Below are positions 1,566 to 43,155 of a stretch of 64,000 bases of DNA, piece after piece. Source of the stretch: Lobosporangium transversale (lineage: Eukaryota); NCBI RefSeq assembly GCF_002105155.1, contig NW_019028995.1, positions 372,001-436,000 of the forward strand. The letters run 5' to 3'. Positions within the stretch are counted from its first letter, which is position 1. Each line of letters opens with the position of its first letter. The notes under the pieces were generated by a model that saw only the letters and a list, made by a program, of their open reading frames with translations, was not told the origin of the DNA and searched no databases. Position numbers and translations under genes: made by a program.

Positions 1566-1598
<33 letters not shown>

Positions 1599-2429
1599 AT
1601 AACAAGGACCCTCAGGGTCATGGGATTTATTTTCTACACTCTATGAACAAAATGCTCCAGAAACTATAGTCAATAAACAGCTATTACTGCACAAACGACA
1701 AGAGCCGCTGTATCCATGATTTCATAAACCCTGACCGCCGTGGTTGGTACTCAAAGTCCACCTTTCCGACGTGGCCTGTTGCGCAACGCGACAAATTATC
1801 CGCTATCCATAGTCATCAAAAACTTCATTCCACCTAGCCGCTCCATCACGTCCAGTTTGGTTTTCCCAAGGTAACTGTCCCGGACTCGGTCATCCGCGAT
1901 CTTGTAGATCTCTTTTACATTCAGCTTCTGTCTTTGTCTGAGGGAAGGGACAAGGAAATCATTGCTACTACGTCTGTGCTCCCCAACACAGTTGCGTCCT
2001 CTAGCGCGTTTGCTCATAGCAGTGATTCCACGAGCCTTTTCCCATTCAACGGTGACTTTACACCGTTTGTTCCAGATTTCTGTACGACCGAATTCCTCTA
2101 TGGCCTTGACGAAGCGCCCTGCCATATATGTAGCTATCCTTGTTGTTGTCTTGAAGCCAACTTTCCAACTCTGAGCAATGGACTTGGGCGTAAGTCAATG
2201 GTAAATGTCCTGCACAGACCAATCTGGTGTGTGCTCTCTCTCTTCCTCATCACCGTCGTTCCTATCACCATGGCGTCGTACTTCTCGCACACCATCGATA
2301 TGCATCTCCAGAGTTTTCCAAATGTAGTCCTCCTCTGCCGCAGTAAAAGTTGGCTCTTTTGTCCTTGGTGGGTCTACACCTCTCTCTGGCCCTTTGTGCT
2401 TGCTCCTGCACTGCTTTCAACGCTTTCCT

Positions 2430-5400
2430 TCATGTCCTCTCCCCTATCACATTCACATTTTGGATTATCTCCTTCCACTTCTCGGCCTGAGTCCCCATCG
2501 TCCTTGGACATCTCCAGATGTGCGATGTGTCTTCATCCTCTGTCCCACACACTCTGCAGTTGCCGTCTTCATAAAAGTCTGGCCTCCAGTGTCTCATATA
2601 TGACTGTGTAGGCAACATTCCATGGAGTTTCTTGATCCTGTGCGCTCGCTTTTGGCAGTCCGCTGGGCTGGTGAAGAGTCCTTTCGGTAGGTTGCTATCA
2701 TGAACAATGTTCATAGTAGCTCGCCAATCAATTTTTGTCCAATCCTTAACATGCTCCTGCGTCCTGTTCTGAGCGATCCACGTGTGATGTGTACGAGTTG
2801 TTGACTGTAACTTAAGGATCTGCCTTAAGTCATCTTCCGCTGGTACACCGTTGAACTTTGCATGGCAGTACATGTCATTATGCTCCGTTATGTTGATATC
2901 CCATAGCTCGCCATAATGTCCATGTTTTGCTGCTTCGTCCGCTTCTTCGTTCCCTCTGTTGCCGGCATGTCCTTTGACCCACTCGACCGTGACTTCCGAT
3001 CCTTGTTGAATAAATGCGTTGTGTATAGCTGCCCACCATACTGCATACGGTGATCTAATACGTTGTCGCAACGTGCTATCCACTCTGCCTCGGACCAATG
3101 CTCGGAATTGAGTCACAACTGCGCTGTTATCAAGTCGGATTGTCATAGGTCTGTTTCGTGGGCTGATAAGTATTCCTGCCAACAAACCAGCTAGCTCTGC
3201 CTTTGTCGAGGATGCGTTGCCTGCTACTCTACCAGATAGCGCAGTGTAAAACTCACCCTCTTGTGTCTGGACTACCACACCAAATGCCATACTTACTCTT
3301 TCAGTGCCAATATCTTTGAGAGATCCATCCGTATAAATGACATTACCCGGCTGGGTATTGTACCGTTCCCTTTGGCGTTGGATTTTCTCCTCGGTATTGG
3401 CACTAATGATAACTCCATTTGTGTCCCTGGCTAGGCCTCTGTTGACTTCAGGGATCACTTTTAGGCACGGTGTCTCGTTGGAATCCAGGTCGACTTTTGC
3501 TCTCCTTAGCAGAGCTTGCTCGCTCAGACCCTCATATCTCCTTGTGTTCTGGGTCCGGCGTCTCCTCGCTTCTTCGCGGGCTCGCATGCGTTCACCATGC
3601 CTTCGCTCTCGGTCCTGGTGGCGTTCTGCTCTTCTGACTATGGCATCTAACTTTGCTCTTTGTCGCCTAAGATTATGTTCTCTGGTTGCTCTGCGCGCCT
3701 CTTTCATAACAGCTTCTCGTCTCTTTTTCCGCTCCTTCTGTTGATCTAGAATCCACTTAATTCCAATTGGTGGCTCAACAGCTTGATTAGCCGGTGATAC
3801 TGTCAAGGTTCTGTTCGCTGCCTCATGCTTTATGAATTGGTTGAGTGCACGAATCGCTTCTCGATCTTCGTCTTCTGTATCCCCGTCTACCGAGCTGACA
3901 TAACTACTGTCGCTGTTGCTGTCATCATCACTGACGTCTAAGAGTGCCAGTTTCCTCCTGTTCCATTCTCTTGCATGCCTACCCACATAATCGTTGTCGA
4001 AGCAAAAGTTTTGAAGTTGGTTGAACCAGAATGGCGAAACTTTAGGCCCTCCGTAACGGGTCCTGAATGCGTGCCATGAGATCATGTCCTCCTTATCATC
4101 CGTAAGTATTTGATCCACAAAGTATACCATACGCTTGGTGAGCGCCTTCCATACGTGTGGTAATTCTCCGTTTAGCCATTTCCATGTCGAGAGAGCGTTG
4201 TGTGGGAGACCAAATTCGGCTGCGATCGATAGGTCGAAAGTAATGTTACGATTCTTCATTTCTTCACAAACATTCGATATAAAGTTGTGGCGATACTTTT
4301 TGACACGATGTGGCTCCAAAGTTGGCGAGACTTCCATCTTATTCCTGTGCTGCAGCATCAGTACTCGTGTCCGACATATCCGTCCCATTACATTGCTGTC
4401 ATTAAGTCGAAGCGCCAGGGTAGATATTTGTTCTTCCGCTTGAGCGTTCGCCAAGTCTTTGATGGCATACAATCTATTGTGGTTCATAATGCTGTTTGGC
4501 GTAGTTGATGGCATACGTGCTTTCCGCTTACACAGTGACATATACTTACCAGTCATCTTCTGTAGGAACGTTGGTGGCAACATTTGGGCCGAAATCCTAT
4601 ACAGCACCTTTGGGATGAGCACATTATTGACAATATACGTTGTCTGCCGATCTGTCAGGGCTTTGGACCGGAGAATGTTACAGGTCGTTTCTATTTCCTG
4701 CTCCACTATTTGCTGTGTTGCTGTTGGATTTCCTGTTGCTGTGACCCAAACACCAAGAATCCGTACCGATTCATTCTTTTCCACTGGTCGGATCTCTTCT
4801 GTAGGTGTCCCAAATTTCAGCGTGCTCCTCCTATCCTGCTTGCTGTTGATACAGATGACCTGCGTTTTCTTGGCGTTCACTTCCACCCCGTTAAGAATGA
4901 AGAATGTCGTTGCAATGTCAAGTATCTCCTGCATATGTGCTTTGGAGTCCGATATCCATGTAGTATCATCCACGAAAGCAAGGCCAGCAACTGATGGTGT
5001 CCCTCTTGGTCCCTCTAGACTATATCCAGTGCTACTGTCTATAATTTCACACAGGAGTGCATCATATGCTATTCTCCATAAAAGCGGACATTCCACTCCA
5101 CCTTGATCCAAACCGCACTCTGGATGATACTCGTCAGTTGGTCCGTATTCAGTAATCACCCTGTTCACTTTGGAAATGGCGATGTTTTCACATAGGCGTA
5201 TGAACTGTTCAGGGACCTGGAGCCGTCTTAGTCCGCGAGAAAGCATCCCATCGGGGGCGCAGTTGACAGAGTCGAAACACCGTTTCATGTCTTGGAACAC
5301 AATCCACTGTTCTTTCTTGAACTCTCTTGCGTCTTCCATTGCCGCTTGCAGGATATGGATTGGATCCTTAGTGGTAGTACCTTTAAGAACAGAGAAGTTT

Positions 5401-7454
5401 GGTCCTCGTAGAATATCGTGCCTGGCCATGATCGCGCTTAACCTATTTGTTATTACTGCAAACATTATTTTCCGTGCGTGCTCCAACAAAGCTATCGGCC
5501 TTACCTCTGCCATGTTTCCTGACCATTCTGGAGCTTTTGGTATGCAATAGAGGAGCCCCGTCTTCCAATCCTTGGGGACGTCTTCTTGCACGATAGTGGC
5601 ACTTATGATTTGGAAGAGGATAAAGAGCCCCTGCGGTCCTTGGTGTTGGATCATTTCGTTCGTAATGCCTGACACACCAGCTGCCTTGTTTTTGGGTGCA
5701 TCCAGGACCACAGCTGAAAACTCATTTCTGCTTGGTGGATCCATCAGACCGTCGTACCATTCACTCTTGATCCACCTCTGAGGGCTATATTGCTTCTGCC
5801 ATCTCGAACCCGGCTCTAGCGGTTTTGACGGCCTACGTCCGTGCCACTTGTCGAACCATGCCCGTACCTTCTCTTTAACTTGCTGTGGCTCTAGAATATT
5901 CACTGTGACACCGCCTTCGTCGTCCTGAATCCGGTCTATTGTCACTTTACCTCCGCCACGTCCCAGCACTTTGTCTATCATTTTCCCTGTTGCCGACTTC
6001 AACTCTCCACAGCGTTTCTCTATCAGGCCATTCATCGTCCTTGTCTTTTCCAGCTTCCTTGTCGCCTGTAAAAATGATATTGACTCTGTCCATCTGTGCT
6101 TTACTCCTCTTACCCAATCTTTCCATACATCGTCGCTATCCTTCGTGTCCGGTATAGTAGTGAGGCCTTCGATCTCCCCTTGTCCTTGCAGCCTCAACCA
6201 CTCAGCATTCTTATTAAATTTTTTCTGCTGCTCTACCAGTGTTGTCCATCTTGCGTCTCTTTGTACTGTTGATAATCCTCTGCGGGTTTGATTTGCCAAT
6301 TTTTTAATTTTAGCGAGATCACGTATGAGGTGGCGGAGACACAATTCTTGTTCTGGCTTCACTCCAGACCGACCAACCACTCTTCCTGGCAAGTTTTCTT
6401 TGGCGCTTTCTATGAGCAGCTTTGAATACCATTTCCATGCAAGGTCAATGTCGATTCTTTGAAGGTCTTCTGGCGTCAAGAGATCCTTTTCATCGTCGTT
6501 CTGGGCTCTCCGTAGGCCCATTGTAGAAGATTCACTGCCGTCTCCAATTCTTATATTCACACCGTTCTCAAAATTCTCCCAATCGTCGTTGCTGGCATCG
6601 CGAAGTAAGAATTTGTAGCCCTTGGGTTTTTTGTAAATGATGTGATGAAGTGGTTGTTGAATAAGGCGGTGCAGTGTCATTTCTAGAGTGACCATTTTGT
6701 GGTCTGACGCCACAATACCATCCAATGATTTGTGTTTGACCCTGAGAAGCCTATCCGTGAATACACTAGATACAAAGATCATGTCTATACGGCTCGTATT
6801 CTGGCAGGTATAGTCTTCACGAAGAGGGTGTTGAGCGCGGAAAACATCATGAAGTGGCTGCGTCTCCATCCATTGAAGTAGTGCCGATTCTGGTCTTATA
6901 CTCGTTGCGTTCTCTCGTCGTCGATCGAGCCGGGGGTTCCTAGTAGCATTGAAATCCCCAAGAATGATTATACCCCTCCCTTCTTCTCTCGCGTCGTTAT
7001 ATTCTTTTTGTATCCATTTAGTAATTACTTCTGCTTCATCTTCCCTTCCGCTTGGTAGGTAGCAGTTAATTACTCTGATTTTAAATCCCCCAGGAAAGTT
7101 GAAATCTCTCGCTTGGCCTCTGCTCCCACAAGATGAAGTTCTCGCAGCGTACTGGAACCAATGCTGAGCGATCAAAAGCCCAACCCCTGTTCCCTGTGTT
7201 GCACCTTCTTTACCACTCACCCACCACATTTTATATTTAGTTTGTTTCAAATTTCTTGCCATTTTACTCCCTCCAACATGCATGTTGGTTTCTTGGAGTG
7301 CTATCATATCTAAATCTTTCATATCACCATATTCACATAACGCTTCTATTTTCCCAGCTTCTAACGCACCCCGTATGTTAAATGATCCAAATTTAATAGC
7401 ATTGCTATTAGATCTAGTACTGTCCTGTCTATTTTGAGTGCTTGCATTACTCAT
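2430..7454 (-). CDS. LINE ORF2: APE endonuclease, reverse transcriptase, RNase H and CCHC knuckle (C-terminally truncated)
   Basis: APE motifs SFNIRG, LQET, LGDFN, SRIDMI, SDH; RT motifs RPIALL, GLDQGGVECP, AFVDD; RNase H motifs YTDGS, KAEL, LDN, WVKGHAGNRGNEEAD; CRVC-x8-H-x3-C. Homologous coding continues past the stop to 1796. Confidence 0.95.
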   Translation of the reverse strand: MSNASTQNRQDSTRSNSNAIKFGSFNIRGALEAGKIEALCEYGDMKDLDMIALQETNMHVGGSKMARNLKQTKYKMWWVSGKEGATQGTGVGLLIAQHWFQYAARTSSCGSRGQARDFNFPGGFKIRVINCYLPSGREDEAEVITKWIQKEYNDAREEGRGIIILGDFNATRNPRLDRRRENATSIRPESALLQWMETQPLHDVFRAQHPLREDYTCQNTSRIDMIFVSSVFTDRLLRVKHKSLDGIVASDHKMVTLEMTLHRLIQQPLHHIIYKKPKGYKFLLRDASNDDWENFENGVNIRIGDGSESSTMGLRRAQNDDEKDLLTPEDLQRIDIDLAWKWYSKLLIESAKENLPGRVVGRSGVKPEQELCLRHLIRDLAKIKKLANQTRRGLSTVQRDARWTTLVEQQKKFNKNAEWLRLQGQGEIEGLTTIPDTKDSDDVWKDWVRGVKHRWTESISFLQATRKLEKTRTMNGLIEKRCGELKSATGKMIDKVLGRGGGKVTIDRIQDDEGGVTVNILEPQQVKEKVRAWFDKWHGRRPSKPLEPGSRWQKQYSPQRWIKSEWYDGLMDPPSRNEFSAVVLDAPKNKAAGVSGITNEMIQHQGPQGLFILFQIISATIVQEDVPKDWKTGLLYCIPKAPEWSGNMAEVRPIALLEHARKIMFAVITNRLSAIMARHDILRGPNFSVLKGTTTKDPIHILQAAMEDAREFKKEQWIVFQDMKRCFDSVNCAPDGMLSRGLRRLQVPEQFIRLCENIAISKVNRVITEYGPTDEYHPECGLDQGGVECPLLWRIAYDALLCEIIDSSTGYSLEGPRGTPSVAGLAFVDDTTWISDSKAHMQEILDIATTFFILNGVEVNAKKTQVICINSKQDRRSTLKFGTPTEEIRPVEKNESVRILGVWVTATGNPTATQQIVEQEIETTCNILRSKALTDRQTTYIVNNVLIPKVLYRISAQMLPPTFLQKMTGKYMSLCKRKARMPSTTPNSIMNHNRLYAIKDLANAQAEEQISTLALRLNDSNVMGRICRTRVLMLQHRNKMEVSPTLEPHRVKKYRHNFISNVCEEMKNRNITFDLSIAAEFGLPHNALSTWKWLNGELPHVWKALTKRMVYFVDQILTDDKEDMISWHAFRTRYGGPKVSPFWFNQLQNFCFDNDYVGRHAREWNRRKLALLDVSDDDSNSDSSYVSSVDGDTEDEDREAIRALNQFIKHEAANRTLTVSPANQAVEPPIGIKWILDQQKERKKRREAVMKEARRATREHNLRRQRAKLDAIVRRAERHQDRERRHGERMRAREEARRRRTQNTRRYEGLSEQALLRRAKVDLDSNETPCLKVIPEVNRGLARDTNGVIISANTEEKIQRQRERYNTQPGNVIYTDGSLKDIGTERVSMAFGVVVQTQEGEFYTALSGRVAGNASSTKAELAGLLAGILISPRNRPMTIRLDNSAVVTQFRALVRGRVDSTLRQRIRSPYAVWWAAIHNAFIQQGSEVTVEWVKGHAGNRGNEEADEAAKHGHYGELWDINITEHNDMYCHAKFNGVPAEDDLRQILKLQSTTRTHHTWIAQNRTQEHVKDWTKIDWRATMNIVHDSNLPKGLFTSPADCQKRAHRIKKLHGMLPTQSYMRHWRPDFYEDGNCRVCGTEDEDTSHIWRCPRTMGTQAEKWKEIIQNVNVIGERT

Positions 7455-9204
7455 TATGGACTAGTGGTTTTGGCGGCAATCCACTTGAGGTTGATTTCTC
7501 TTCTTTTCTACTTTTTTCCTTACTACCTGCTCCGTTTGCTATGAGAGCCATAATCCCTGCTAGGGACTCGTTAGTAGGAGGCATGCCTGGAAAAGCAGCT
7601 GACTTACCTTTGTTTTTGGGCACGTTCCTGTGGAACTCTCCACTCAGTCCTGCTGCCTTCAGGTGCTCGGCTGCGAAGTCCATTCCAAGATGTTGGCTCA
7701 TCATTCCTATTAACATTTGGATTAGTAGACTGTTTTGAGCACGTAGTTGTTGTTGCTCTTCCTGTAGGCGTTCCACTGTATCTACCAGTTGCTGGATTTT
7801 CTTATCGACTGCACCAGTGTTGCTGTTCTTTCCTATGACGTTTGTTTGACCAGAACTTTGGATATTGGTTTTTTCTTCCTGTGCCTTCTGTTGGTTGCTT
7901 TGAGTAACACTTCCACTCTTTCCCGTGGCGGCTTTGGCGTATGAGAGTTGTGGTACAACTTTCAGTGCTCCTCCCTTTTGGTATTCCTTGACAGCTTTGA
8001 TGTGCTGCTTTGTCTCCTGGAGTGCAATGAATACCTCGCATTCCCTCATGATGTGTCCTGGTTTGTGGCATTGTCGGCATCGTTTGTCGTCCTTATCACC
8101 CCAGAAAGTCTCAATGCCCCCGATTTTGACTGGTTTAGTCATAGTTTCCGCCATTGCTTCTGCAGAGGGGAAATACACGAATGCTTCTCGTTGATATTGC
8201 CATTTCTTCCCGTCTTTTGAAAAATAGCGTGGCACTTTGACGAAATTCGCTTGCTTTTCTCCAAGGAGAGGCTCCAAGTCCTTGTCTGTCGTTCCAAAAG
8301 GGAGACCTGAGATTTTTGCGACGTGTGTCAATGTCCACTCGACTCGTTCATTGCCGATTTTGCGGATGCGCGCGAGTTCTTTTCCAATGAAGACGTGCTC
8401 CCGGTTGGCCAATTTGAATTTTGTGACGTCCTCAACATTGTTATAAACTACTGCTGCGGTGATCTTGACTCCCTTGGAGCATGGGCGGGTTGCAATCTTT
8501 TCAATAGTACCGAACTGCAGCATTGCTGACTTGATAAGGAATTCCGGAGTCCTAGGAGCAATACCATAAACCTCCACTGTGCGTTCCAGTTCACGTTCAC
8601 GGGTGTCGGTATTCATTTCAAAAAACAATGGGACTTCGTGTTCATTTCCGTCTTCATCTTTGTGTGTAGCAGTCATTTCCAGGAGCGCTGTCAGGGATGG
8701 TTGATCCTCAACAGCAACACGGAAAGCAGTATATCCATTGACTTTGACCTTGTGTGGTCCTTCTGTGCAATAGATGGCAGCATCCAACAAGACTGTTTCC
8801 AGGTCTTTCTTTTTTTCGGCAACCGTTGTTCCATAAAGGTCCTCGAGGAAGACGCCGGCCGCCTTCAGCCTATCCTTGGTGCGTCTCACTTCCTGCCATT
8901 CTGTGACTCCCACAGTGGCCATTGCGTCATCGTCTTCGTCCATTGCGTCCTGTTCTTGTGTAGCTGCACGCAAGCCATTTGCACCCAGGCTGCGGTTATA
9001 CGAGGGACGGCTCTTAGAGCCCGTTCCCTCGTCAACGCGGCTCCCGCTCGCCTCTATGCCGCTTGCGGGACCGACTTCTTGGTTGTTGGGCTGTCTTTGA
9101 GATCCGATTCCGCTATTTGGAATGCGAGCTCTTTTCGAATGAGGGACATTTCTGTCCAAATTGGGTGGATCATGTTGCTGATTTTTTCCTAATGCAGGTT
9201 CCAT
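7447..9204 (-). CDS. LINE ORF1 (gag-like, RRM-like segments, CCHC zinc knuckle, coiled coil)
   Basis: CRQCHKPGHIMREC knuckle; RRM-like TVEVYGI and AKISGLP; first ATG at 9204 (GTG at 9225); overlaps the ORF2 start by 8 nt. Confidence 0.9.
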   Translation of the reverse strand: MEPALGKNQQHDPPNLDRNVPHSKRARIPNSGIGSQRQPNNQEVGPASGIEASGSRVDEGTGSKSRPSYNRSLGANGLRAATQEQDAMDEDDDAMATVGVTEWQEVRRTKDRLKAAGVFLEDLYGTTVAEKKKDLETVLLDAAIYCTEGPHKVKVNGYTAFRVAVEDQPSLTALLEMTATHKDEDGNEHEVPLFFEMNTDTRERELERTVEVYGIAPRTPEFLIKSAMLQFGTIEKIATRPCSKGVKITAAVVYNNVEDVTKFKLANREHVFIGKELARIRKIGNERVEWTLTHVAKISGLPFGTTDKDLEPLLGEKQANFVKVPRYFSKDGKKWQYQREAFVYFPSAEAMAETMTKPVKIGGIETFWGDKDDKRCRQCHKPGHIMRECEVFIALQETKQHIKAVKEYQKGGALKVVPQLSYAKAATGKSGSVTQSNQQKAQEEKTNIQSSGQTNVIGKNSNTGAVDKKIQQLVDTVERLQEEQQQLRAQNSLLIQMLIGMMSQHLGMDFAAEHLKAAGLSGEFHRNVPKNKGKSAAFPGMPPTNESLAGIMALIANGAGSKEKSRKEEKSTSSGLPPKPLVHNE

Positions 9205-9315
9205 GATGAGTGATGTCGTTGGCACTCTTGTGCGCTAACAGGGGGTGTGGAAGGGGTGTGTATAGAGAGGGAATGTGTAAATGTAGCGTATCCGATGGTG
9301 TACGGAGAAGAGTTT

Positions 9316-9446
9316 TATAAAAACTCAAGCAAATCCCTGACCTGGCACATGTTTGCTTCACTTTATGTGCCTTAACCAGGACTCGAACCCGACCCCTGGG
9401 CTAGACAGGAGGGTGCCCTGACGAGTATACTACTCAGCCATTGGGC
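9316..9446 (-). promoter_or_regulatory. tRNA-derived Pol III promoter head (A box, B box, T5 tract)
   Basis: Minus strand GCCCAA-TGGCTGAGTAG (A box) ... GGTTCGAGTCC (B box) ... TTAAGGCA, then about 45 nt and TTTTT; the same module occurs at 31508-31632 and in part at 39716-39798. Confidence 0.8.
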
Positions 9447-9451
9447 CTGAT

Positions 9452-9526
9452 GTCCTTTGACCCCGTTGCCCTGGTCCATACATGACGTCCTTTGACCCCG
9501 TTGCCCTGGTCCATACATGACGTCCT
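9452..9526 (+). repeat. 35-bp direct tandem duplication
   Basis: gtcctttgaccccgttgccctggtccatacatgac at 9452 and 9487, with a partial third copy at 9522. Confidence 0.9.
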
Positions 9527-9628: not shown

Positions 9629-9701
9629 GCCCTTATGGCTTAGTGGTTATAGCGTCCCACTCGTAATGGGAAGGTCCTCGGTTCAACTCCGAGTTGGGGC
9701 A
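9629..9701 (+). tRNA. tRNA-Thr(CGT)
   Basis: GCCCTTA...TTGGGGC-A acceptor stem, D loop TGGCTTAGTGG, anticodon arm TCCCA-CT CGT AA-TGGGA, T arm CTCGG-TTCAACT-CCGAG, TTTT at 9721. Confidence 0.93.
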
Positions 9702-9724: not shown

Positions 9725-10193
9725 GGATTAATCTATTTGACAGCCTAGTTGCTAAATATTATTTGGCAGCCTAGTTGCTAAATATTATTTGGCAGCCCAT
9801 TGCCAAATATAATCAACTTTCAAGACTCTCTTTGGCAGCCCAGTTGCCAAATAACATTCATTATTTACTTGGCAGCCTACCCAGGGCTATTTGGCCTCTA
9901 ACTATTTATTTATTTTTATTTTTATTTTTTTTTTTTCAAGTAGGTCGCTCATACAGTTTTGGAGGTGCCATTTGGAGATCAATGCCTATGAGAGGTTTTC
10001 GCTCGGAGCAAACGCGTCTCACCTACTACCTAGACGTCTTCAATAAACCATTCCCTAACCGTGTACATTGAAGGCTGTTTTGTGAAGATGTCATCGCCGC
10101 TGCCCTTAGTACCTCCGGCGGCATTAGCTGTGCAAGGCAATGTATCCACAGAACGCTGCTTGTTTTACCACTGATGTTATGACCCTGTTTATC

Positions 10194-10226
<33 letters not shown>

Positions 10227-26647: not shown

Positions 26648-26692
<45 letters not shown>

Positions 26693-31092: not shown

Positions 31093-31165
31093 AGCCCAAC
31101 GCGGGGATCGAACCCGCAACCTTCAGATTAGAAGTCTGATGCTCTACCGATTGAGCTAGCCGGGC
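31093..31165 (-). tRNA. tRNA with anticodon TCT (Arg) on a tRNA-Lys-like body
   Basis: GCCCGGCTAGCTCAATCGGTAGAGCA-TCAGA-CT TCT AA-TCTGA-AGGTT-GCGGG-TTCGATC-CCCGC-GTTGGGC-T folds into a full cloverleaf. Confidence 0.92.
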
Positions 31166-31404
31166 AAGGTGTCCTGCGCATAGTTTTGGATCTCCTTAAA
31201 ATCTAATTACCTTGTGTTATCATTATATCCAGTAGTATTGTGTTTGGATATAGTGGCTTCCATACATTAGGTAGTATACTCGTCAGGGCACCAAAACTCT
31301 TCTCCGTACACCATCGGATACGCTACATTTACACATTCCCTCTCTATACACACCCCTTCCACACCCCCTGTTAGCGCACAAGAGTGCCAACGACATCACT
31401 CATC

Positions 31405-33850
31405 ATGGAACCTGCATTAGGAAAAAATCAGCAACATGATCCACCCAATTTGGACAGAAATGTCCCTCATTCGAAAAGAGCTCGCATTCCAAATAGCGGA
31501 ATCGGATTGGCTGAGTAGTATACTCGTCAGGGCACCCCCCTGTCTAGCCCAGGGGCCGGGTTCGAGTCCTGGTTAAGGCACATAAAGTGAAGCAAACATG
31601 TGCCAGGTCAGGGATTTGCTTGAGTTTTTATACTTTCTCTCCGAGACAGCCTAGTGTTCTCCGCTAAGGCTAAGATCGTGGGTGCACTACCCTAAGTCGC
31701 CTGGCTGGCCACATGTCTTAGGTATATATTCCACCCCCCAGCCGAACCAGCGGTACATCTGGCAGCACATCCCCCCATCCACCCACTTGACTAGGACAGC
31801 GATGATCACAAAGTTTGACGGAGTCCAAAATAGAAATTTCAGACCAATTCCGCAAGATTTGGGTCCACATGCCAGTGGATTTGATCTAATAGAAAAAATT
31901 AAAAAAGTCGTCCTTAGCTAGAGTCGGCACGCCAGCCTCCGCAGCTTTTCACGGGCGCAACAGGCCACATCGGAAGGATGGACTTCGAGTACCGATCACG
32001 GTGTACATTGGTAGAGAAAAACATGGATACGAATTGGCTCTTCACAGCCATCCCGTGCGAACTTTGAGAGTTTCGCTTGTTTCATAGTTGAGGGCGATAT
32101 CATTACTTTAGAGCGAGATTATGAAATAAAATTCCTCACCTCTGTGGGTTCTTGTTAACAGGAAAAAAAAAAAAATCCAAATAGCGGAATCGGATCTCAA
32201 AGACAGCCCAACAACCAAGAAGTCGGTCCCGCAAGCGGCATAGAGGCGAGCGGGAGCCGCGTTGACGAGGGAACGGGCTCTAAGAGCCGTCCCTCGTATA
32301 ACCGCAGCCTGGGTGCAAATGGCTTGCGTGCAGCTACACAAGAACAGGACGCAATGGACGAAGACGATGACGCAATGGCCACTGTGGGAGTCACAGAATG
32401 GCAGGAAGTGAGACGCACCAAGGATAGGCTGAAGGCGGCCGGCGTCTTCCTCGAGGACCTTTATGGAACAACGGTTGCCGAAAAAAAGAAAGACCTGGAA
32501 ACAGTCTTGTTGGATGCTGCCATCTATTGCACAGAAGGACCACACAAGGTCAAAGTCAATGGATATACTGCTTTCCGTGTTGCTGTTGAGGATCAACCAT
32601 CCCTGACAGCGCTCCTGGAAATGACTGCTACACACAAAGATGAAGACGGAAATGAACACGAAGTCCCATTGTTTTTTGAAATGAATACCGACACCCGTGA
32701 ACGTGAACTGGAACGCACAGTGGAGGTTTATGGTATTGCTCCTAGGACTCCGGAATTCCTTATCAAGTCAGCAATGCTGCAGTTCGGTACTATTGAAAAG
32801 ATTGCAACCCGCCCATGCTCCAAGGGAGTCAAGATCACCGCAGCAGTAGTTTATAACAATGTTGAGGACGTCACAAAATTCAAATTGGCCAACCGGGAGC
32901 ACGTCTTCATTGGAAAAGAACTCGCGCGCATCCGCAAAATCGGCAATGAACGAGTCGAGTGGACATTGACACACGTCGCAAAAATCTCAGGTCTCCCTTT
33001 TGGAACGACAGACAAGGACTTGGAGCCTCTCCTTGGAGAAAAGCAAGCGAATTTCGTCAAAGTGCCACGCTATTTTTCAAAAGACGGGAAGAAATGGCAA
33101 TATCAACGAGAAGCATTCGTGTATTTCCCCTCTGCAGAAGCAATGGCGGAAACTATGACTAAACCAGTCAAAATCGGGGGCATTGAGACTTTCTGGGGTG
33201 ATAAGGACGACAAACGATGCCGACAATGCCACAAACCAGGACACATCATGAGGGAATGCGAGGTATTCATTGCACTCCAGGAGACAAAGCAGCACATCAA
33301 AGCTGTCAAGGAATACCAAAAGGGAGGAGCACTGAAAGTTGTACCACAACTCTCATACGCCAAAGCCGCCACGGGAAAGAGTGGAAGTGTTACTCAAAGC
33401 AACCAACAGAAGGCACAGGAAGAAAAAACCAATATCCAAAGTTCTGGTCAAACAAACGTCATAGGAAAGAACAGCAACACTGGTGCAGTCGATAAGAAAA
33501 TCCAGCAACTGGTAGATACAGTGGAACGCCTACAGGAAGAGCAACAACAACTACGTGCTCAAAACAGTCTACTAATCCAAATGTTAATAGGAATGATGAG
33601 CCAACATCTTGGAATGGACTTCGCAGCCGAGCACCTGAAGGCAGCAGGACTGAGTGGAGAGTTCCACAGGAACGTGCCCAAAAACAAAGGTAAGTCAGCT
33701 GCTTTTCCAGGCATGCCTCCTACTAACGAGTCCCTAGCAGGGATTATGGCTCTCATAGCAAACGGAGCAGGTAGTAAGGAAAAAAGTAGAAAAGAAGAGA
33801 AATCAACCTCAAGTGGATTGCCGCCAAAACCACTAGTCCATAATGAGTAA
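31405..33850 (+). pseudogene. LINE ORF1 of copy 2, split by a SINE insertion
   Basis: MEPALGKNQ start at 31405; the frame resumes after 32195 and matches copy 1 ORF1. Confidence 0.9.
31508..32175 (+). mobile_element. tRNA-headed SINE / non-autonomous LINE partner (about 670 bp)
   Basis: A and B boxes at the 5' end, LINE-like 3' UTR, poly(A), perfect 20-bp TSD TCCAAATAGCGGAATCGGAT at 31488-31507 and 32176-32195. Confidence 0.93.
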
Positions 33851-36800
33851 TGCAAGCACTCAAAATAGACAGGACAGTACTAGATCTAATAGCAATGCTA
33901 TTAAATTTGGATCATTTAACATACGGGGTGCGTTAGAAGCTGGGAAAATAGAAGCGTTATGTGAATATGGTGATATGAAAGATTTAGATATGATAGCACT
34001 CCAAGAAACCAACATGCATGTTGGAGGGAGTAAAATGGCAAGAAATTTGAAACAAACTAAATATAAAATGTGGTGGGTGAGTGGTAAAGAAGGTGCAACA
34101 CAGGGAACAGGGGTTGGGCTTTTGATCGCTCAGCATTGGTTCCAGTACGCTGCGAGAACTTCATCTTGTGGGAGCAGAGGCCAAGCGAGAGATTTCAACT
34201 TTCCTGGGGGATTTAAAATCAGAGTAATTAACTGCTACCTACCAAGCGGAAGGGAAGATGAAGCAGAAGTAATTACTAAATGGATACAAAAAGAATATAA
34301 CGACGCGAGAGAAGAAGGGAGGGGTATAATCATTCTTGGGGATTTCAATGCTACTAGGAACCCCCGGCTCGATCGACGACGAGAGAACGCAACGAGTATA
34401 AGACCAGAATCGGCACTACTTCAATGGATGGAGACGCAGCCACTTCATGATGTTTTCCGCGCTCAACACCCTCTTCGTGAAGACTATACCTGCCAGAATA
34501 CGAGCCGTATAGACATGATCTTTGTATCTAGTGTATTCACGGATAGGCTTCTCAGGGTCAAACACAAATCATTGGATGGTATTGTGGCGTCAGACCACAA
34601 AATGGTCACTCTAGAAATGACACTGCACCGCCTTATTCAACAACCACTTCATCACATCATTTACAAAAAACCCAAGGGCTACAAATTCTTACTTCGCGAT
34701 GCCAGCAACGACGATTGGGAGAATTTTGAGAACGGTGTGAATATAAGAATTGGAGACGGCAGTGAATCTTCTACAATGGGCCTACGGAGAGCCCAGAACG
34801 ACGATGAAAAGGATCTCTTGACGCCAGAAGACCTTCAAAGAATCGACATTGACCTTGCATGGAAATGGTATTCAAAGCTGCTCATAGAAAGCGCCAAAGA
34901 AAACTTGCCAGGAAGAGTGGTTGGTCGGTCTGGAGTGAAGCCAGAACAAGAATTGTGTCTCCGCCACCTCATACGTGATCTCGCTAAAATTAAAAAATTG
35001 GCAAATCAAACCCGCAGAGGATTATCAACAGTACAAAGAGACGCAAGATGGACAACACTGGTAGAGCAGCAGAAAAAATTTAATAAGAATGCTGAGTGGT
35101 TGAGGCTGCAAGGACAAGGGGAGATCGAAGGCCTCACTACTATACCGGACACGAAGGATAGCGACGATGTATGGAAAGATTGGGTAAGAGGAGTAAAGCA
35201 CAGATGGACAGAGTCAATATCATTTTTACAGGCGACAAGGAAGCTGGAAAAGACAAGGACGATGAATGGCCTGATAGAGAAACGCTGTGGAGAGTTGAAG
35301 TCGGCAACAGGGAAAATGATAGACAAAGTGCTGGGACGTGGCGGAGGTAAAGTGACAATAGACCGGATTCAGGACGACGAAGGCGGTGTCACAGTGAATA
35401 TTCTAGAGCCACAGCAAGTTAAAGAGAAGGTACGGGCATGGTTCGACAAGTGGCACGGACGTAGGCCGTCAAAACCGCTAGAGCCGGGTTCGAGATGGCA
35501 GAAGCAATATAGCCCTCAGAGGTGGATCAAGAGTGAATGGTACGACGGTCTGATGGATCCACCAAGCAGAAATGAGTTTTCAGCTGTGGTCCTGGATGCA
35601 CCCAAAAACAAGGCAGCTGGTGTGTCAGGCATTACGAACGAAATGATCCAACACCAAGGACCGCAGGGGCTCTTTATCCTCTTCCAAATCATAAGTGCCA
35701 CTATCGTGCAAGAAGACGTCCCCAAGGATTGGAAGACGGGGCTCCTCTATTGCATACCAAAAGCTCCAGAATGGTCAGGAAACATGGCAGAGGTAAGGCC
35801 GATAGCTTTGTTGGAGCACGCACGGAAAATAATGTTTGCAGTAATAACAAATAGGTTAAGCGCGATCATGGCCAGGCACGATATTCTACGAGGACCAAAC
35901 TTCTCTGTTCTTAAAGGTACTACCACTAAGGATCCAATCCATATCCTGCAAGCGGCAATGGAAGACGCAAGAGAGTTCAAGAAAGAACAGTGGATTGTGT
36001 TCCAAGACATGAAACGGTGTTTCGACTCTGTCAACTGCGCCCCCGATGGGATGCTTTCTCGCGGACTAAGACGGCTCCAGGTCCCTGAACAGTTCATACG
36101 CCTATGTGAAAACATCGCCATTTCCAAAGTGAACAGGGTGATTACTGAATACGGACCAACTGACGAGTATCATCCAGAGTGCGGTTTGGATCAAGGTGGA
36201 GTGGAATGTCCGCTTTTATGGAGAATAGCATATGATGCACTCCTGTGTGAAATTATAGACAGTAGCACTGGATATAGTCTAGAGGGACCAAGAGGGACAC
36301 CATCAGTTGCTGGCCTTGCTTTCGTGGATGATACTACATGGATATCGGACTCCAAAGCACATATGCAGGAGATACTTGACATTGCAACGACATTCTTCAT
36401 TCTTAACGGGGTGGAAGTGAACGCCAAGAAAACGCAGGTCATCTGTATCAACAGCAAGCAGGATAGGAGGAGCACGCTGAAATTTGGGACACCTACAGAA
36501 GAGATCCGACCAGTGGAAAAGAATGAATCGGTACGGATTCTTGGTGTTTGGGTCACAGCAACAGGAAATCCAACAGCAACACAGCAAATAGTGGAGCAGG
36601 AAATAGAAACGACCTGTAACATTCTCCGGTCCAAAGCCCTGACAGATCGGCAGACAACGTATATTGTCAATAATGTGCTCATCCCAAAGGTGCTGTATAG
36701 GATTTCGGCCCAAATGTTGCCACCAACGTTCCTACAGAAGATGACTGGTAAGTATATGTCACTGTGTAAGCGGAAAGCACGTATGCCATCAACTACGCCA

Positions 36801-38867
36801 AACAGCATTATGAACCACAATAGATTGTATGCCATCAAAGACTTGGCGAACGCTCAAGCGGAAGAACAAATATCTACCCTGGCGCTTCGACTTAATGACA
36901 GCAATGTAATGGGACGGATATGTCGGACACGAGTACTGATGCTGCAGCACAGGAATAAGATGGAAGTCTCGCCAACTTTGGAGCCACATCGTGTCAAAAA
37001 GTATCGCCACAACTTTATATCGAATGTTTGTGAAGAAATGAAGAATCGTAACATTACTTTCGACCTATCGATCGCAGCCGAATTTGGTCTCCCACACAAC
37101 GCTCTCTCGACATGGAAATGGCTAAACGGAGAATTACCACACGTATGGAAGGCGCTCACCAAGCGTATGGTATACTTTGTGGATCAAATACTTACGGATG
37201 ATAAGGAGGACATGATCTCATGGCACGCATTCAGGACCCGTTACGGAGGGCCTAAAGTTTCGCCATTCTGGTTCAACCAACTTCAAAACTTTTGCTTCGA
37301 CAACGATTATGTGGGTAGGCATGCAAGAGAATGGAACAGGAGGAAACTGGCACTTTTAGACGTCAGTGATGATGACAGCAACAGCGACAGTAGTTATGTC
37401 AGCTCGGTAGACGGGGATACAGAAGACGAAGATCGAGAAGCGATTCGTGCACTCAACCAATTCATAAAGCATGAGGCAGCGAACAGAACCTTGACAGTAT
37501 CACCGGCTAATCAAGCTGTTGAGCCACCAATTGGAATTAAGTGGATTCTAGATCAACAGAAGGAGCGGAAAAAGAGACGAGAAGCTGTTATGAAAGAGGC
37601 GCGCAGAGCAACCAGAGAACATAATCTTAGGCGACAAAGAGCAAAGTTAGATGCCATAGTCAGAAGAGCAGAACGCCACCAGGACCGAGAGCGAAGGCAT
37701 GGTGAACGCATGCGAGCCCGCGAAGAAGCGAGGAGACGCCGGACCCAGAACACAAGGAGATATGAGGGTCTGAGCGAGCAAGCTCTGCTAAGGAGAGCAA
37801 AAGTCGACCTGGATTCCAACGAGACACCGTGCCTAAAAGTGATCCCTGAAGTCAACAGAGGCCTAGCCAGGGACACAAATGGAGTTATCATTAGTGCCAA
37901 TACCGAGGAGAAAATCCAACGCCAAAGGGAACGGTACAATACCCAGCCGGGTAATGTCATTTATACGGATGGATCTCTCAAAGATATTGGCACTGAAAGA
38001 GTAAGTATGGCATTTGGTGTGGTAGTCCAGACACAAGAGGGTGAGTTTTACACTGCGCTATCTGGTAGAGTAGCAGGCAACGCATCCTCGACAAAGGCAG
38101 AGCTAGCTGGTTTGTTGGCAGGAATACTTATCAGCCCACGAAACAGACCTATGACAATCCGACTTGATAACAGCGCAGTTGTGACTCAATTCCGAGCATT
38201 GGTCCGAGGCAGAGTGGATAGCACGTTGCGACAACGTATTAGATCACCGTATGCAGTATGGTGGGCAGCTATACACAACGCATTTATTCAACAAGGATCG
38301 GAAGTCACGGTCGAGTGGGTCAAAGGACATGCCGGCAACAGAGGGAACGAAGAAGCGGACGAAGCAGCAAAACATGGACATTATGGCGAGCTATGGGATA
38401 TCAACATAACGGAGCATAATGACATGTACTGCCATGCAAAGTTCAACGGTGTACCAGCGGAAGATGACTTAAGGCAGATCCTTAAGTTACAGTCAACAAC
38501 TCGTACACATCACACGTGGATCGCTCAGAACAGGACGCAGGAGCATGTTAAGGATTGGACAAAAATTGATTGGCGAGCTACTATGAACATTGTTCATGAT
38601 AGCAACCTACCGAAAGGACTCTTCACCAGCCCAGCGGACTGCCAAAAGCGAGCGCACAGGATCAAGAAACTCCATGGAATGTTGCCTACACAGTCATATA
38701 TGAGACACTGGAGGCCAGACTTTTATGAAGACGGCAACTGCAGAGTGTGTGGGACAGAGGATGAAGACACATCGCACATCTGGAGATGTCCAAGGACGAT
38801 GGGGACTCAGGCCGAGAAGTGGAAGGAGATAATCCAAAATGTGAATGTGATAGGGGAGAGGACATGA
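33843..38867 (+). CDS. LINE ORF2 of copy 2 (APE-RT-RNase H-CCHC)
   Basis: Translation matches 2430..7454, with the same premature TGA. Confidence 0.95.
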   Translation: MSNASTQNRQDSTRSNSNAIKFGSFNIRGALEAGKIEALCEYGDMKDLDMIALQETNMHVGGSKMARNLKQTKYKMWWVSGKEGATQGTGVGLLIAQHWFQYAARTSSCGSRGQARDFNFPGGFKIRVINCYLPSGREDEAEVITKWIQKEYNDAREEGRGIIILGDFNATRNPRLDRRRENATSIRPESALLQWMETQPLHDVFRAQHPLREDYTCQNTSRIDMIFVSSVFTDRLLRVKHKSLDGIVASDHKMVTLEMTLHRLIQQPLHHIIYKKPKGYKFLLRDASNDDWENFENGVNIRIGDGSESSTMGLRRAQNDDEKDLLTPEDLQRIDIDLAWKWYSKLLIESAKENLPGRVVGRSGVKPEQELCLRHLIRDLAKIKKLANQTRRGLSTVQRDARWTTLVEQQKKFNKNAEWLRLQGQGEIEGLTTIPDTKDSDDVWKDWVRGVKHRWTESISFLQATRKLEKTRTMNGLIEKRCGELKSATGKMIDKVLGRGGGKVTIDRIQDDEGGVTVNILEPQQVKEKVRAWFDKWHGRRPSKPLEPGSRWQKQYSPQRWIKSEWYDGLMDPPSRNEFSAVVLDAPKNKAAGVSGITNEMIQHQGPQGLFILFQIISATIVQEDVPKDWKTGLLYCIPKAPEWSGNMAEVRPIALLEHARKIMFAVITNRLSAIMARHDILRGPNFSVLKGTTTKDPIHILQAAMEDAREFKKEQWIVFQDMKRCFDSVNCAPDGMLSRGLRRLQVPEQFIRLCENIAISKVNRVITEYGPTDEYHPECGLDQGGVECPLLWRIAYDALLCEIIDSSTGYSLEGPRGTPSVAGLAFVDDTTWISDSKAHMQEILDIATTFFILNGVEVNAKKTQVICINSKQDRRSTLKFGTPTEEIRPVEKNESVRILGVWVTATGNPTATQQIVEQEIETTCNILRSKALTDRQTTYIVNNVLIPKVLYRISAQMLPPTFLQKMTGKYMSLCKRKARMPSTTPNSIMNHNRLYAIKDLANAQAEEQISTLALRLNDSNVMGRICRTRVLMLQHRNKMEVSPTLEPHRVKKYRHNFISNVCEEMKNRNITFDLSIAAEFGLPHNALSTWKWLNGELPHVWKALTKRMVYFVDQILTDDKEDMISWHAFRTRYGGPKVSPFWFNQLQNFCFDNDYVGRHAREWNRRKLALLDVSDDDSNSDSSYVSSVDGDTEDEDREAIRALNQFIKHEAANRTLTVSPANQAVEPPIGIKWILDQQKERKKRREAVMKEARRATREHNLRRQRAKLDAIVRRAERHQDRERRHGERMRAREEARRRRTQNTRRYEGLSEQALLRRAKVDLDSNETPCLKVIPEVNRGLARDTNGVIISANTEEKIQRQRERYNTQPGNVIYTDGSLKDIGTERVSMAFGVVVQTQEGEFYTALSGRVAGNASSTKAELAGLLAGILISPRNRPMTIRLDNSAVVTQFRALVRGRVDSTLRQRIRSPYAVWWAAIHNAFIQQGSEVTVEWVKGHAGNRGNEEADEAAKHGHYGELWDINITEHNDMYCHAKFNGVPAEDDLRQILKLQSTTRTHHTWIAQNRTQEHVKDWTKIDWRATMNIVHDSNLPKGLFTSPADCQKRAHRIKKLHGMLPTQSYMRHWRPDFYEDGNCRVCGTEDEDTSHIWRCPRTMGTQAEKWKEIIQNVNVIGERT

Positions 38868-39715
38868 AGGAAAGCGTTGAAAGCAGTGCAGGAGCAAGCA
38901 CAAAGGGCCAGAGAGAGGTGTAGACCCACCAAGGACAAAAGAGCCAACTTTTACTGCGGCAGAGGAGGACTACATTTGGAAAACTCTGGAGATGCATATC
39001 GATGGTGTGCGAGAAGTACGACGCCATGGTGATAGGAACGACGGTGATGAGGAAGAGAGAGAGCACACACCAGATTGGTCTGTGCAGGACATTTACCATT
39101 GACTTACGCCCAAGTCCATTGCTCAGAGTTGGAAAGTTGGCTTCAAGACAACAACAAGGATAGCTACATATATGGCAGGGCGCTTCGTCAAGGCCATAGA
39201 GGAATTCGGTCGTACAGAAATCTGGAACAAACGGTGTAAAGTCACCGTTGAATGGGAAAAGGCTCGTGGAATCACTGCTATGAGCAAACGCGCTAGAGGA
39301 CGCAACTGTGTTGGGGAGCACAGACGTAGTAGCAATGATTTCCTTGTCCCTTCCCTCAGACAAAGACAGAAGCTGAATGTAAAAGAGATCTACAAGATCG
39401 CGGATGACCGAGTCCGGGACAGTTACCTTGGGAAAACCAAACTGGACGTGATGGAGCGGCTAGGTGGAATGAAGTTTTTGATGACTATGGATAGCGGATA
39501 ATTTGTCGCGTTGCGCAACAGGCCACGTCGGAAAGGTGGACTTTGAGTACCAACCACGGCGGTCAGGGTTTATGAAATCATGGATACAGCGGCTCTTGTC
39601 GTTTGTGCAGTAATAGCTGTTTATTGACTATAGTTTCTGGAGCATTTTGTTCATAGAGTGTAGAAAATAAATCCCATGACCCTGAGGGTCCTTGTTATCA
39701 AAAAAAAAAAAAAAA

Positions 39716-39798
39716 GTATACTCGTCAGGGCACATATATACTCGTCAGGGCACCCCCCTGTCTAGCCCAGGGGCCGGGTTCGAGTCCTGGTTAAGGCA
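39716..39798 (+). mobile_element. tRNA-like head of the outer SINE (target of LINE A copy 2)
   Basis: GTATACTCGTCAGGGCAC-ATA-TATACTCGTCAGGGCACCCCCC...GGTTCGAGTCCTGGTTAAGGCA; its 5' stub lies at 31271-31291. Confidence 0.8.
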
Positions 39799-42646
39799 TC
39801 TCCAGCATGGTCCCACAATGTTCAAAATGCCCTTCATGAGTCCCTTTACACACACAACTTTATCGAAGTATGGTGTAGAGACAAAAAGAACATTCTTCAG
39901 AGACTAGACGAAGAGGAAGAGAGAGATTTAAGGGAGCTCCAACAGCTAAATGAGGCTGAAAACAATGAGAGAGCAGATGAACTACTCACAGAAGACAATA
40001 TGTTGGAGGAGCAGCCCACTGAGGATGATGAGGATGATGACGTTGGATATATAAGTTACCTCAGTGACGTGGAAGAAGACCCCAGAGAGCCACTTGATCC
40101 CCTAAGTGTAGAACAGCGGGAGGAAAGAGAAAGAAGAGCACAGTGTTACATACAAGAGGGTATGCAGGAGTATGAAGGATACACTGAGTCTGATCGCGAA
40201 CTCCAAAAAGAATACTTGCGAGAAAATTTTGAAAAAAGAGAGCGTTTGAGAGAAAAAGAGCGCGAAGCTAACGAGAGGCATAGGCTGTGGAAAGATCCTC
40301 AAGGAAGGAAAATGTTTCAATTTCGCGACCGTTTGGAAAGAGGGAAGAGGGAGCAATGGTTGCTAAGAAAAATAGAGCAAGAGAGGAAAAAAGAAGAGGC
40401 GGAGAGAAGGAGAGTGTGGCGACGTGAACAGTGGGTGCAAGCCAAGCAAGAAGCCGCACACTCGAAGGCTATCGAAAGAGCTCGCCGTCAAGAACGCCTA
40501 CGGTTACAGGCTAGGTTTCAAAGGCTCGATGAACAAGGAAGAAGAGAACAGCGACGGCGAGCGGCTTTCAACCGAGCAAGACGTAGAGCACAAGAGCGAA
40601 ACAAGATACGTGGACGCCATGAACTCGATGAACAAGCTCTCGATAGGAGGCTCAGGACGAAAGCGCAAGAAGAGATGGACTCCTCAAGAACAAGGAATAA
40701 TAAAATCCCAGAGGGTCATCATTGGTGGTTTGGCTCCTCTGAGTGCCTAGGTGTAGAGATCCCACAGGTTGACATGGACAATATACTGCGTCAAAGAGAG
40801 AAACTATCAACGATGAGTCAGCTAACACTTTACTCCGATGGGTCCCTTGAAGAGGCAGGAAGAAGGGCGGCGCGGATGGCTTTCGGAGTGGTGGCTCAGA
40901 TAGGCCCAGAAAGCTTCTCAAATGTAGTTTCAGGTAGAGTCGATGGGTATGCTTCATCCACCAAGGCAGAGCTAGTAGGACTGTACGCAGCCATCCTAGT
41001 CAGTCCCCGTAACGTTCCAACGACTGTCTACATAGACAACATGGCGGTAGTGGTTCAGTTCAAGGACCTTGCTCAAAAGCGAGAAGCAAGCACTGAACGG
41101 CAGCGATTGCGATCCAAGTACGCAGTGTGGTGGGCAGCCATTTCGAGAGCGCTCTTTAAGCAGGGCGGGAAGGTAACTGTGAAATGGATCAAGGGCCATG
41201 CTGGGAATAGAGGCAATATAAGGGCAGACCAAGCCGCCAAAGATGCTCATTTTAGCGAAATGTGGACAATCAAAGGACTGGAACACAACGATCTGCGCTG
41301 TCACGCTATTTTCGAGAACGAGGTGGTGGAGGATGGTCTTAGACACCTGCTAAAGCTCCAATCAGCAGTGAGAACACATTACTTGTGGGCGTCTCAGAAC
41401 AGAGTCAGGAATTATATTGCAGACTGGCGAGAAGTAGAATGGAAAGCAAGCCTGCATATTCTTCACGATGGCAACACGCCTAGAGGCCTCTTCACCAGCC
41501 CAGCAGATTGTCACAAGAGAGCGCACAGAATAAAAAAGGTCCATGGTATGCTTTCTACACTCACTTATATGAGGCAGTGGCGACCGGACCTGTATGAGAC
41601 TGACATCTGCAGGGTGTGTGAACAGGAGCAGGAGGACATAGAACACCTCTGGCGATGTCCCATGACACTGGACGAGCAATTGAAAGGTTGGAAGCAGGCC
41701 ATAGAACTCATCACGAAGGATGGCAAAAGAGCATTAGTGAAGGAGAAGAAGCTCTGGGAAGACAAACAAGGGAAAACACAGGAGCCAAACCTGAATAAAG
41801 GAGGTCCCTCGTTTACACCTGTAGCCGACAACGTGATTTGGGGCTCTTTGGAAGCGATGTTCAAGGGCGTCAGAGAGATCCGACATGCAAGCACTCTGTT
41901 TGGTGAGGAAGACGTGGATATGGGACGGAGGAACGAGGGTGAGGATGCCCACTGGACTGTCCAAGACTTGTACCACGGTTTGGTGCCGAAGGAACTGATA
42001 CAAAAATGGAAGACGATCTTCAGAACCACAGCATCGATCTCAAGGTACATTGTTTGCCGCTTTGTCAAGTCAATCGCGGAACTCGGCAGGACTGAAATCT
42101 GGAACAGACGCTGCAAAGTCACCGTCAACTGGGAAAGAGACAATGGTATCACCTCTGCGAGCAAACGCGCCAGGGGACGCAACTGTGTTGGGAGGCACAG
42201 ACGTAGCAGAGGTGAATTCTTTGGCTCTCACCAGGGACAACGACGAACAGCAGATGTGAAGGCGATCAGGACTGAGGCAGACCGGCGAGTGGCGGCAAGC
42301 TACCGGCAGCAGGTGGAATTGGCGATTATGGAGCGCCTGGAAAGCTGTAAATTTTTGATGATTGAGGACAGCGGCTAAAGGATGACCTTCGCGCACAACA
42401 GGCCAAGTAGGGAGTAGAACCGTGCCACAGGTCCTCTGGGACCAAGGAAGTCTACTCAATGCTGACGTGGTTTATGAACAGGATGTAGTACTGTGGCAGT
42501 ATGACGATGCGGCTTCGGTCGATTATTGGATACCGCTTTATTTGCGACCCCAGTAATGGGGCAACCCATTTATAGAGCTAACATCTAAATAAATCCTACA
42601 TGACCTCGTGGGTCCTTGTTATCAAAAAAAAAAAAAAAAAAAAAAA
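39799..42646 (+). mobile_element. 5'-truncated LINE family B (RNase H, CCHC, intact C-terminus, 3' UTR, poly(A))
   Basis: Frame open from 39799 (SPAWSHNVQN aligns to family A SPFWFNQLQN) to the stop at 42378; YSDGS, KAEL, IDN, WIKGHAGNRGN; tail GACCTCGTGGGTCCTTGTTATC-A(n). Confidence 0.92.
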
Positions 42647-43155
42647 TTCTCCGCTAAGGCTAAGATCGTGGGTGCACTACCCTAAGTCGCCTGGCTGGCC
42701 ACACGTCTTAGGTATATATTCCACCCCCCAGCCGAACCAGCGGTACATCTGGCAGCACATCCCCCCATCCACCCACTTGACTAGGACAGCGATGATCACA
42801 AAGTTTGACGGAGTCCAAAGTAGAAATTTCAGACCAATCCCGCAAGATTTGGGTCCACATGCCAGTGGATTTGATCGAATAGAAAAAAATTAAAAGTCGT
42901 CCTTAGCTAGAGTCGGCACGCCAGCCTCCGCGGCTTTTCACGGGCGCAACAGGCCACATCGGAAGGATGGACTTTGAGTACCGATCACGGTGTACATTGG
43001 TAGAGAAATCATGGATACGAATTGGCTCTTCACAGCCATACCGTGCGAACTTTGAGAGTTTCGCTTGTTTCATAGTTGAGGGCGATATCATTAATTTAGA
43101 GCGAGATTATGAATAAAATTCCTCACCTCTGTGGGTTCTTGTTAACACGAAAAAA
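42647..43155 (+). mobile_element. Body and tail of a second SINE copy
   Basis: Nearly identical to 31657-32175; ends GGGTTCTTGTTAACACG followed by an A-rich tail. Confidence 0.92.

Follow-up and report, generated by a model that had tools for sequence, protein, structure and literature searches.

The analysed stretch of DNA (64 kb, hereafter the window) has a fungal gene content, including DUF3425-bZIP, Ctr, and NOP9-type genes, and harbors two nests of retroelements (Table 1). The evidence presented here comes from this window, from contigs of 4 public runs (X1, X2, X3, and X5), and from 4 metagenome loci (L001 to L004). Contigs from the runs lose rare forms, and their depth is a rough hint that does not equal copy number; X5 is possibly RNA, and neither expression nor read-through was inferred from it. 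Positions within the SINE and its head are numbered from 9446 on the minus strand (+1).

Table 1. Retroelements, their parts and duplications, and tRNA genes in the window.
Feature	Position	Strand	Remarks
LINE A copy 1 (A1), full length	1569..9316	−	112-nt 5′UTR, ORF1, ORF2, 3′UTR, poly(A); no TSD of at least 5 nt found
LINE A1 ORF2	7460–2430	−	APE endonuclease, RT, RNase H, CCHC
LINE A1 ORF1	ATG 9204 to 7447	−	weak RRM, one CCHC knuckle
5′ 131 nt of SINE (head)	9316..9446	−	ends where LINE A1 starts
T5	9323–9319	−	+124
B box	9389–9379	−	+58
A box	9440–9430	−	+7
tRNA-like part of head	9446–9368	−	ends GGCA at +79
35-bp tandem duplication in flank	9448..9526	.	between SINE head and tRNA-Thr
tRNA-Thr(CGT)	9629..9701	+	head-to-head with nest 1; SINE start at 183 bp, LINE A1 start at 313 bp
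tRNA-Arg(TCT)	31093..31165	−	head-to-head with nest 2; T8 tract after; first element at 106 bp
Older SINE, first piece (+14 to +35), 5′-truncated copy	31271..31292	+	contains left TSD of LINE A2
LINE A copy 2 (A2), full length	31293..39715	+	31293–31507 plus 32176–39715; SINE1 interrupts
LINE A2 TSD, 19 bp	31273–31291/39715–39733	+	A2 inserted inside a head
SINE1 TSD, 20 bp	31488–31507/32176–32195	+	encloses head plus body
SINE1	31508..32175	+	head (from +7), ~320-nt body, ~210-nt tail, poly(A); 20-bp TSD
Right A2 TSD, 16-bp duplication (39738–39753), rest of older head to +79	39715..39798	+
LINE B, 5′-truncated	39799..42646	+	RNase H, CCHC; poly(A); no TSD
Older SINE remainder (+156 onward)	42647..43175	+	97% identical to SINE1; decayed A-rich tail

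LINE A shows the features of L1-group LINEs, namely an ORF1 with weak matches to an RRM (E 0.008) and a CCHC knuckle (E 0.21), an ORF2 with APE, RT, and CCHC domains, a poly(A) tail, and, in A2, a TSD. An ORF2 search gave 355 unnamed matches at E ≤ 1e-30. In a separate comparison with solved proteins, human L1 ORF2p was the best match (E 3e-19), with R2 at 6e-17. Relatives of ORF1 comprise 17 matches, 11 of which carry a species name; every named one belongs to the Mortierellaceae, the nearest being 95% identical and labelled Lobosporangium transversale. No ORF1 relatives were found among the candidate stretches from viral (0/18) and prokaryote (0/50) contigs. In the 4 metagenome loci, ORF1 is 38–47% identical to that of LINE A. 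The LINE 5′UTR (about 110 nt) is 81–84% identical in L001–L003 and alignable in L004 despite the lack of a blastn match, and 3 of the 4 loci keep the same 5′ terminus, with L002 diverging there.

The module directly upstream of A1 recurs in SINE1, with 2 substitutions over 125 nt (9440–9316 on the minus strand against 31508–31632 on the plus strand), just as the initial annotation had described. A third, partial head (39737–39798, 62 nt, 3′ end GGCA) has the truncated LINE B directly next to it. Four B-box matches were found in the window, corresponding to the three heads and tRNA-Thr, compared to 0.18 expected, and none of 100 shuffles reached this number. The A box has one mismatch to the consensus. 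Both boxes stand at tRNA-like spacing, as in SINE2 elements, and 3 of 14 ARAGORN calls at a relaxed threshold finish at the 3′ ends of heads. The designation of the head as tRNA-like is retained because of these boxes and calls; it does not extend to a significant fold (no better than chance, z −0.69 to −1.74) or to a match with the Rfam tRNA model, and no ribozyme or other Rfam family matched the head either. Such an absence of fold and Rfam match is expected for a decayed tRNA-derived head. The likeness between head and tRNA-Thr is weak (11/300 shuffles as good), and a search for the head pattern in metagenome contigs gave 0 matches. High-depth head contigs in X1 and X2 stop at 9446, in agreement with the 5′ end assigned initially.

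Several lines of evidence identify the SINE as the owner of the head. With a SINE length of about 670 nt, the 131-nt module corresponds to its 5′ fifth, and beyond 9316, head contigs continue into the SINE body in all 4 runs. The 20-bp TSD of SINE1, which sits within ORF1 of A2, surrounds head and body, and the head therefore moved as part of the SINE. Furthermore, the SINE tail matches the LINE A 3′UTR (score 104, 0/300 shuffles as good). That the SINE retroposes as a unit is evident from its TSD, its poly(A) and LINE-like tail, its presence in three copies within the window, and the high-depth contigs. Single-contig depths of head, LINE A, and flank were 264, 39, and 9.8 in X1 (about 27:4:1, a rough hint) and 289, 46, and about 11.6 in X2, suggesting that about 25–27 heads exist for every 4 copies of LINE A, as far as depth, which is no copy number, can indicate. 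A bipartite SINE with a body opening with the LINE 5′UTR was considered and rejected (34/300 shuffles as good). We are thus highly confident that the module is primarily a SINE head and not a standing part of the LINE. The claim that the LINE carries the same Pol III head as its SINE was not borne out, since the head belongs to the SINE and LINE A begins at a conserved 5′ end of its own.

The SINE of L001 extends these findings to a relative. It shares the post-tRNA motif and the body with the window SINE (scores 42 and 72; 0/300 shuffles each), its tail matches L001's own LINE (0/300 shuffles), and the two heads align only around the B box. The copy-1 junction, at +131 and 2–3 nt beyond T5, falls within the SINE motif conserved in L001. 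Where the window SINE has T5, the L001 SINE has T3, so that the supposed terminator of the head is not conserved. Moreover, the L001 SINE contains no run of T4 or longer in 871 nt (2.6 expected, P 0.037); in SINE1, T-run depletion is not significant. A Pol III-terminated RNA ending at T5 would not reach the copy-1 junction. With the junction past T5, the motif running into the SINE body, and T3 in the related SINE, the proposal that the head is a discrete small RNA terminated by its T5 found no support.

Nest 2 probably consists of an older SINE interrupted by both LINEs; SINE1 in turn interrupts A2. The start of A2 is the very base at which the head stops in copy 1, confirming an earlier observation, and A2 differs from A1 by 1 position in 7540 nt. 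The partial head at 39737–39798 is the right half of the head interrupted by A2. LINE B is 47% identical to LINE A over the best 445-aa block; the SINE pieces flanking it are collinear, with 76 SINE bases missing around it, and no TSD of at least 6 nt encloses the nest. Head and LINE B are directly joined at GGCA, as had been stated, and the exactness claimed for this junction is ambiguous: because the six bases at the head's end encode K-A in the LINE B frame where homologues have K-x (a K stands before S-P-x-W in LINE A, in L001, and in 3/3 other aligned proteins, one of them gapped), the junction may include up to 6 nt of microhomology. Most simply, the older SINE received LINE B (76 nt lost, no TSD), followed by A2 and finally SINE1.

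Four types of LINE A 5′ junction were found, of which copy 1's adjoins the head end and the other three do not. In X2 and X3 contigs, the LINE A 5′ end lies next to non-head sequence, and in X5 it has a different non-head neighbour. Three runs (X1, X2, and X3) contain the A2-type junction in the form of a 22-nt joint; it is absent from the separate listing of LINE A 5′ junction contigs, in which the locus-2 flank has no cover. LINE A depth in X2 and X3 is about 4 times that of a single copy, and only two 5′ junction contigs were seen (depths of 11.1 + 12.2 of 46 and 171.6 + 136.5 of 519). Thus, up to two LINE A copies in these runs could have a 5′ junction that was not seen and could be head-bearing. 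No contig bridging the head end to LINE A is listed in X1, X2, X3, or X5, and essentially no depth is left for such a bridge in X1, X2, or X5 (residuals of −0.1, −0.1, and 0.0, respectively), with X3 not accounted for; because contigs lose rare forms and some records are filtered out, this counts neither way. Among L001–L004, no sequence upstream of the LINE 5′ end is conserved, and an abutting tRNA-like head was found in 0/4.

Some further observations concern these 5′ ends. The X2/X3 and X5 neighbours of the LINE A 5′ end (31294–31296) have a 10-nt motif in common at different breakpoints, possibly reflecting independent insertions at one hot spot. This motif has no exact match in the window (5 one-mismatch matches, 4.4 expected) and is absent from L001–L004. 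On its opposite strand, the X5 neighbour also contains a B-box-like word. A segment of the 5′UTR (9222–9259 and 31350–31387) is common to a further LINE family represented by contigs in all four runs; in X5, this family has the same start point, and the non-head sequence before it ends in TTTAT, like the head end.

The window contains just two tRNA genes, and each has one of the nests upstream of it, with all elements pointing away from the tRNA. The distance is below 350 bp for 2/2 nests, and such zones, which were defined post hoc, make up 1.6% of the non-element DNA. In L003, which comes from another species, a tRNA gene with a GCA anticodon (Rfam, 54.5 bits) lies 154 bp upstream in the same head-to-head arrangement, so that the case for targeting comprises three loci, i.e., the two window nests and L003. 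Element–tRNA distances are 106, 128, 154, 183, 313, and 343 bp. No tRNA was detected in the about 16–125 nt present upstream of the elements in L001, L002, and L004. Given that the bases beyond the poly(A) tails vary between sites, we infer targeting by position rather than by sequence, and the positional cue may be the tRNA gene itself or else the B box within the SINE. It is likely that this LINE–SINE family inserts repeatedly just upstream of tRNA genes. Of the three roles initially envisaged for the head (promoter cassette, discrete small RNA, or preferred target), the last fits best, with the refinement that the shared niche is likely the region upstream of tRNA genes and that SINEs are its residents.

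The surroundings of the nests contain additional repeats. Just downstream of tRNA-Thr, a MITE-like element with terminal inverted repeats (9725–10374) reaches high depth in X1–X3 and contains an insert with a poly(A) tail that extends to 10222 and whose last bases resemble the LINE 3′ end; in an X5 contig, the start of this element is joined to the head flank at 9451. Tandem duplications lie beside both nests (9448–9526, 35 bp; 39718–39753, 16 bp with a 4-nt spacer) and are perhaps scars of aborted insertions; an X1 contig covers the first of them at about twice single-copy depth. Elsewhere in the window, we noted a perfect tandem array with a 68-bp period and about five copies (10573–10920), a 44-bp palindromic T-run next to an A-run (26648–26691), and an inverted dispersed repeat of 157 bp with 76% identity (43536–43692 and 57695–57847).

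We consider it reasonably probable that the junction between the 131-nt module and A1 is a one-off scar, formed when a LINE inserted into a SINE resident upstream of tRNA-Thr and the rest of that SINE was deleted. In such a scenario, LINE proteins would be attracted, without a sequence consensus, to the DNA lying about 100–350 bp 5′ of Pol III genes, and new LINE copies would land in or next to SINEs inserted earlier. The endonuclease would cut on the downstream side of the SINE; once complete, the cDNA would be joined on the upstream side, at SINE +131, via the 1-nt microhomology found at the head/LINE A1 junction. About 540 nt of the SINE (the presumed deleted body) would thereby be lost together with the right TSD of the SINE. 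Insertion of LINE B would have followed the same course, with its 76-bp SINE loss. Transcription of the SINE would likely be by Pol III, with T5 acting as a leaky terminator, and the SINE would likely move by means of its LINE-like tail; the LINE would likely be transcribed from its own 5′UTR. Insertion of a LINE into a SINE is demonstrated for A2 by its 19-bp TSD, and target-site deletions without TSDs have been described for L1 (PMC10760644).

An alternative that we regard as rather unlikely, albeit the strongest of those considered, is a one-step chimera: RT would have copied the whole LINE RNA, jumped to a SINE RNA at +131, and copied on to its 5′ end. The shared orientation of both parts, the intact SINE 5′ end, and the 1-nt microhomology are in line with such a jump, and precedents are given by the fungal MINE elements of Magnaporthe (PMC2104539) and by Alu/L1 chimeras (PMC13174262). 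Moreover, a whole SINE immediately precedes a full LINE in L001, and the two are separated by 19 nt (L001:912–930) that match the LINE's own 3′UTR (8686) in inverted orientation, an arrangement that looks like a template jump. This inverted piece lies between the SINE poly(A) and the LINE 5′ end, and the LINE 3′ end is briefly duplicated. However, whereas the cited chimeras are flanked by TSDs and this family generated TSDs of 19–20 bp twice, no TSD encloses the head and A1, and the copy-1 junction lies past T5, inside the SINE, rather than at an RNA end. Nest 2 could be explained by a double jump, but the SINE pieces around LINE B are collinear and a single insertion suffices, compared to two jumps.

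Considerably less probable than a chimera is an origin of the A1 junction as an assembly artifact or through a deletion that later fused a SINE to a LINE next to it. While the junction occurs in no record other than the assembly, lacks a TSD, and is spanned by a 7-bp inverted repeat, A1 and A2 were resolved with distinct flanks and one differing base, and in an X5 contig the head is followed by the same 5 bases of flank (9447–9451), a weak hint that a head occupies locus 1 in another isolate. Least probable of all is that a LINE subfamily propagates with the head as its functional Pol III promoter cassette, as one of the initial proposals held: the A and B boxes of the head are intact and stand upstream of an intact LINE, and the 5′ junctions of up to two LINE A copies in X2/X3 were not seen, but 3/4 junction types and 4/4 relatives lack an abutting head, A2 moved without a head despite being nearly identical to A1, and a Pol III transcript from the head giving a 7.7-kb LINE RNA appears unlikely because the LINE A sense strand carries a T6 (8625) and three T5 (8224, 6074, and 1822), its T runs not being depleted. 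The T run needed to stop Pol III is T4 in human, compared with T5 in S. pombe and T6 in S. cerevisiae (PMC5356446), and the threshold in this fungus may differ.

The elements and nests described here resemble several known systems in part. TRE5 of Dictyostelium and NLTR-B of Polysphondylium are APE-RT LINEs that are likewise found upstream of tRNA genes, TRE5 is inserted opposite to the tRNA orientation, like the nests described here, and NLTR-A/B contain RNase H, as does LINE A (PMC5911963, PMC5006619). However, TRE5 and NLTR-B use narrow windows of 40–54 bp and 39–64 bp upstream, respectively, compared to 106–343 bp here; furthermore, the elements described here reside in a fungal host, combine RNase H with a CCHC finger, and share their niche with a tRNA-type SINE, so that the comparison is one of position and orientation. 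The SINE resembles SINE2 elements, which have an A/B-box head, an unrelated body, a tail derived from a LINE 3′UTR, poly(A), and a TSD (PMC5786205), but it is long (about 670–900 nt), not bipartite, and its body is conserved in two Mortierellaceae-type SINEs. Alu/L1, U6/L1, and Magnaporthe MINE (WEIRD–MGL) chimeras also carry an RNA-derived sense piece 5′ of the LINE; as described, most of them have a complete 5′ part, many have a truncated LINE, and both parts lie within TSDs (PMC2104539, PMC13174262), whereas copy 1 combines 131 of about 670 SINE nt with a full-length LINE and lacks a TSD. L1 target-site deletions, finally, share with A1 a poly(A)-tailed insertion, the missing TSD, and the loss of target sequence, but were described for 5′-truncated L1 at endonuclease consensus sites (PMC10760644), whereas A1 is full length with no evident site consensus.

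Fungal tRNA-type SINEs are known in Aspergillus (PMC5063351), SINEs with a target bias have been reported in crocodilians (PMC4494074), and the table of Pol III-targeted non-LTR elements in a 2018 review comprises social amoebae only (PMC5911963). In the literature covered, which was judged mostly by titles and included few subscription journals, we found neither a SINE from Mortierella nor a fungal LINE targeted to tRNA genes, nor any autonomous LINE driven by Pol III. The SINE family, which accompanies an RNase H-bearing LINE family in Mortierellaceae, apparently has not been described before. As a speculation that we consider doubtful, the LINE might home on Pol III promoters, with the A/B boxes of SINEs making fresh landing sites and giving rise to self-seeding nests in Mortierellaceae; head–LINE fusions would then be regular by-products, and one such fusion may have multiplied, either giving a Pol III-primed LINE subfamily or seeding new SINEs.

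Taken together, this LINE/SINE pair of the Mortierellaceae appears to favour the region upstream of tRNA genes. If confirmed, this would mean that LINE targeting of tRNA genes arose independently, and in culturable fungi. The presence of two near-identical, intact LINE A copies suggests recent activity, which would make both the targeting and the formation of 5′ junctions directly testable.
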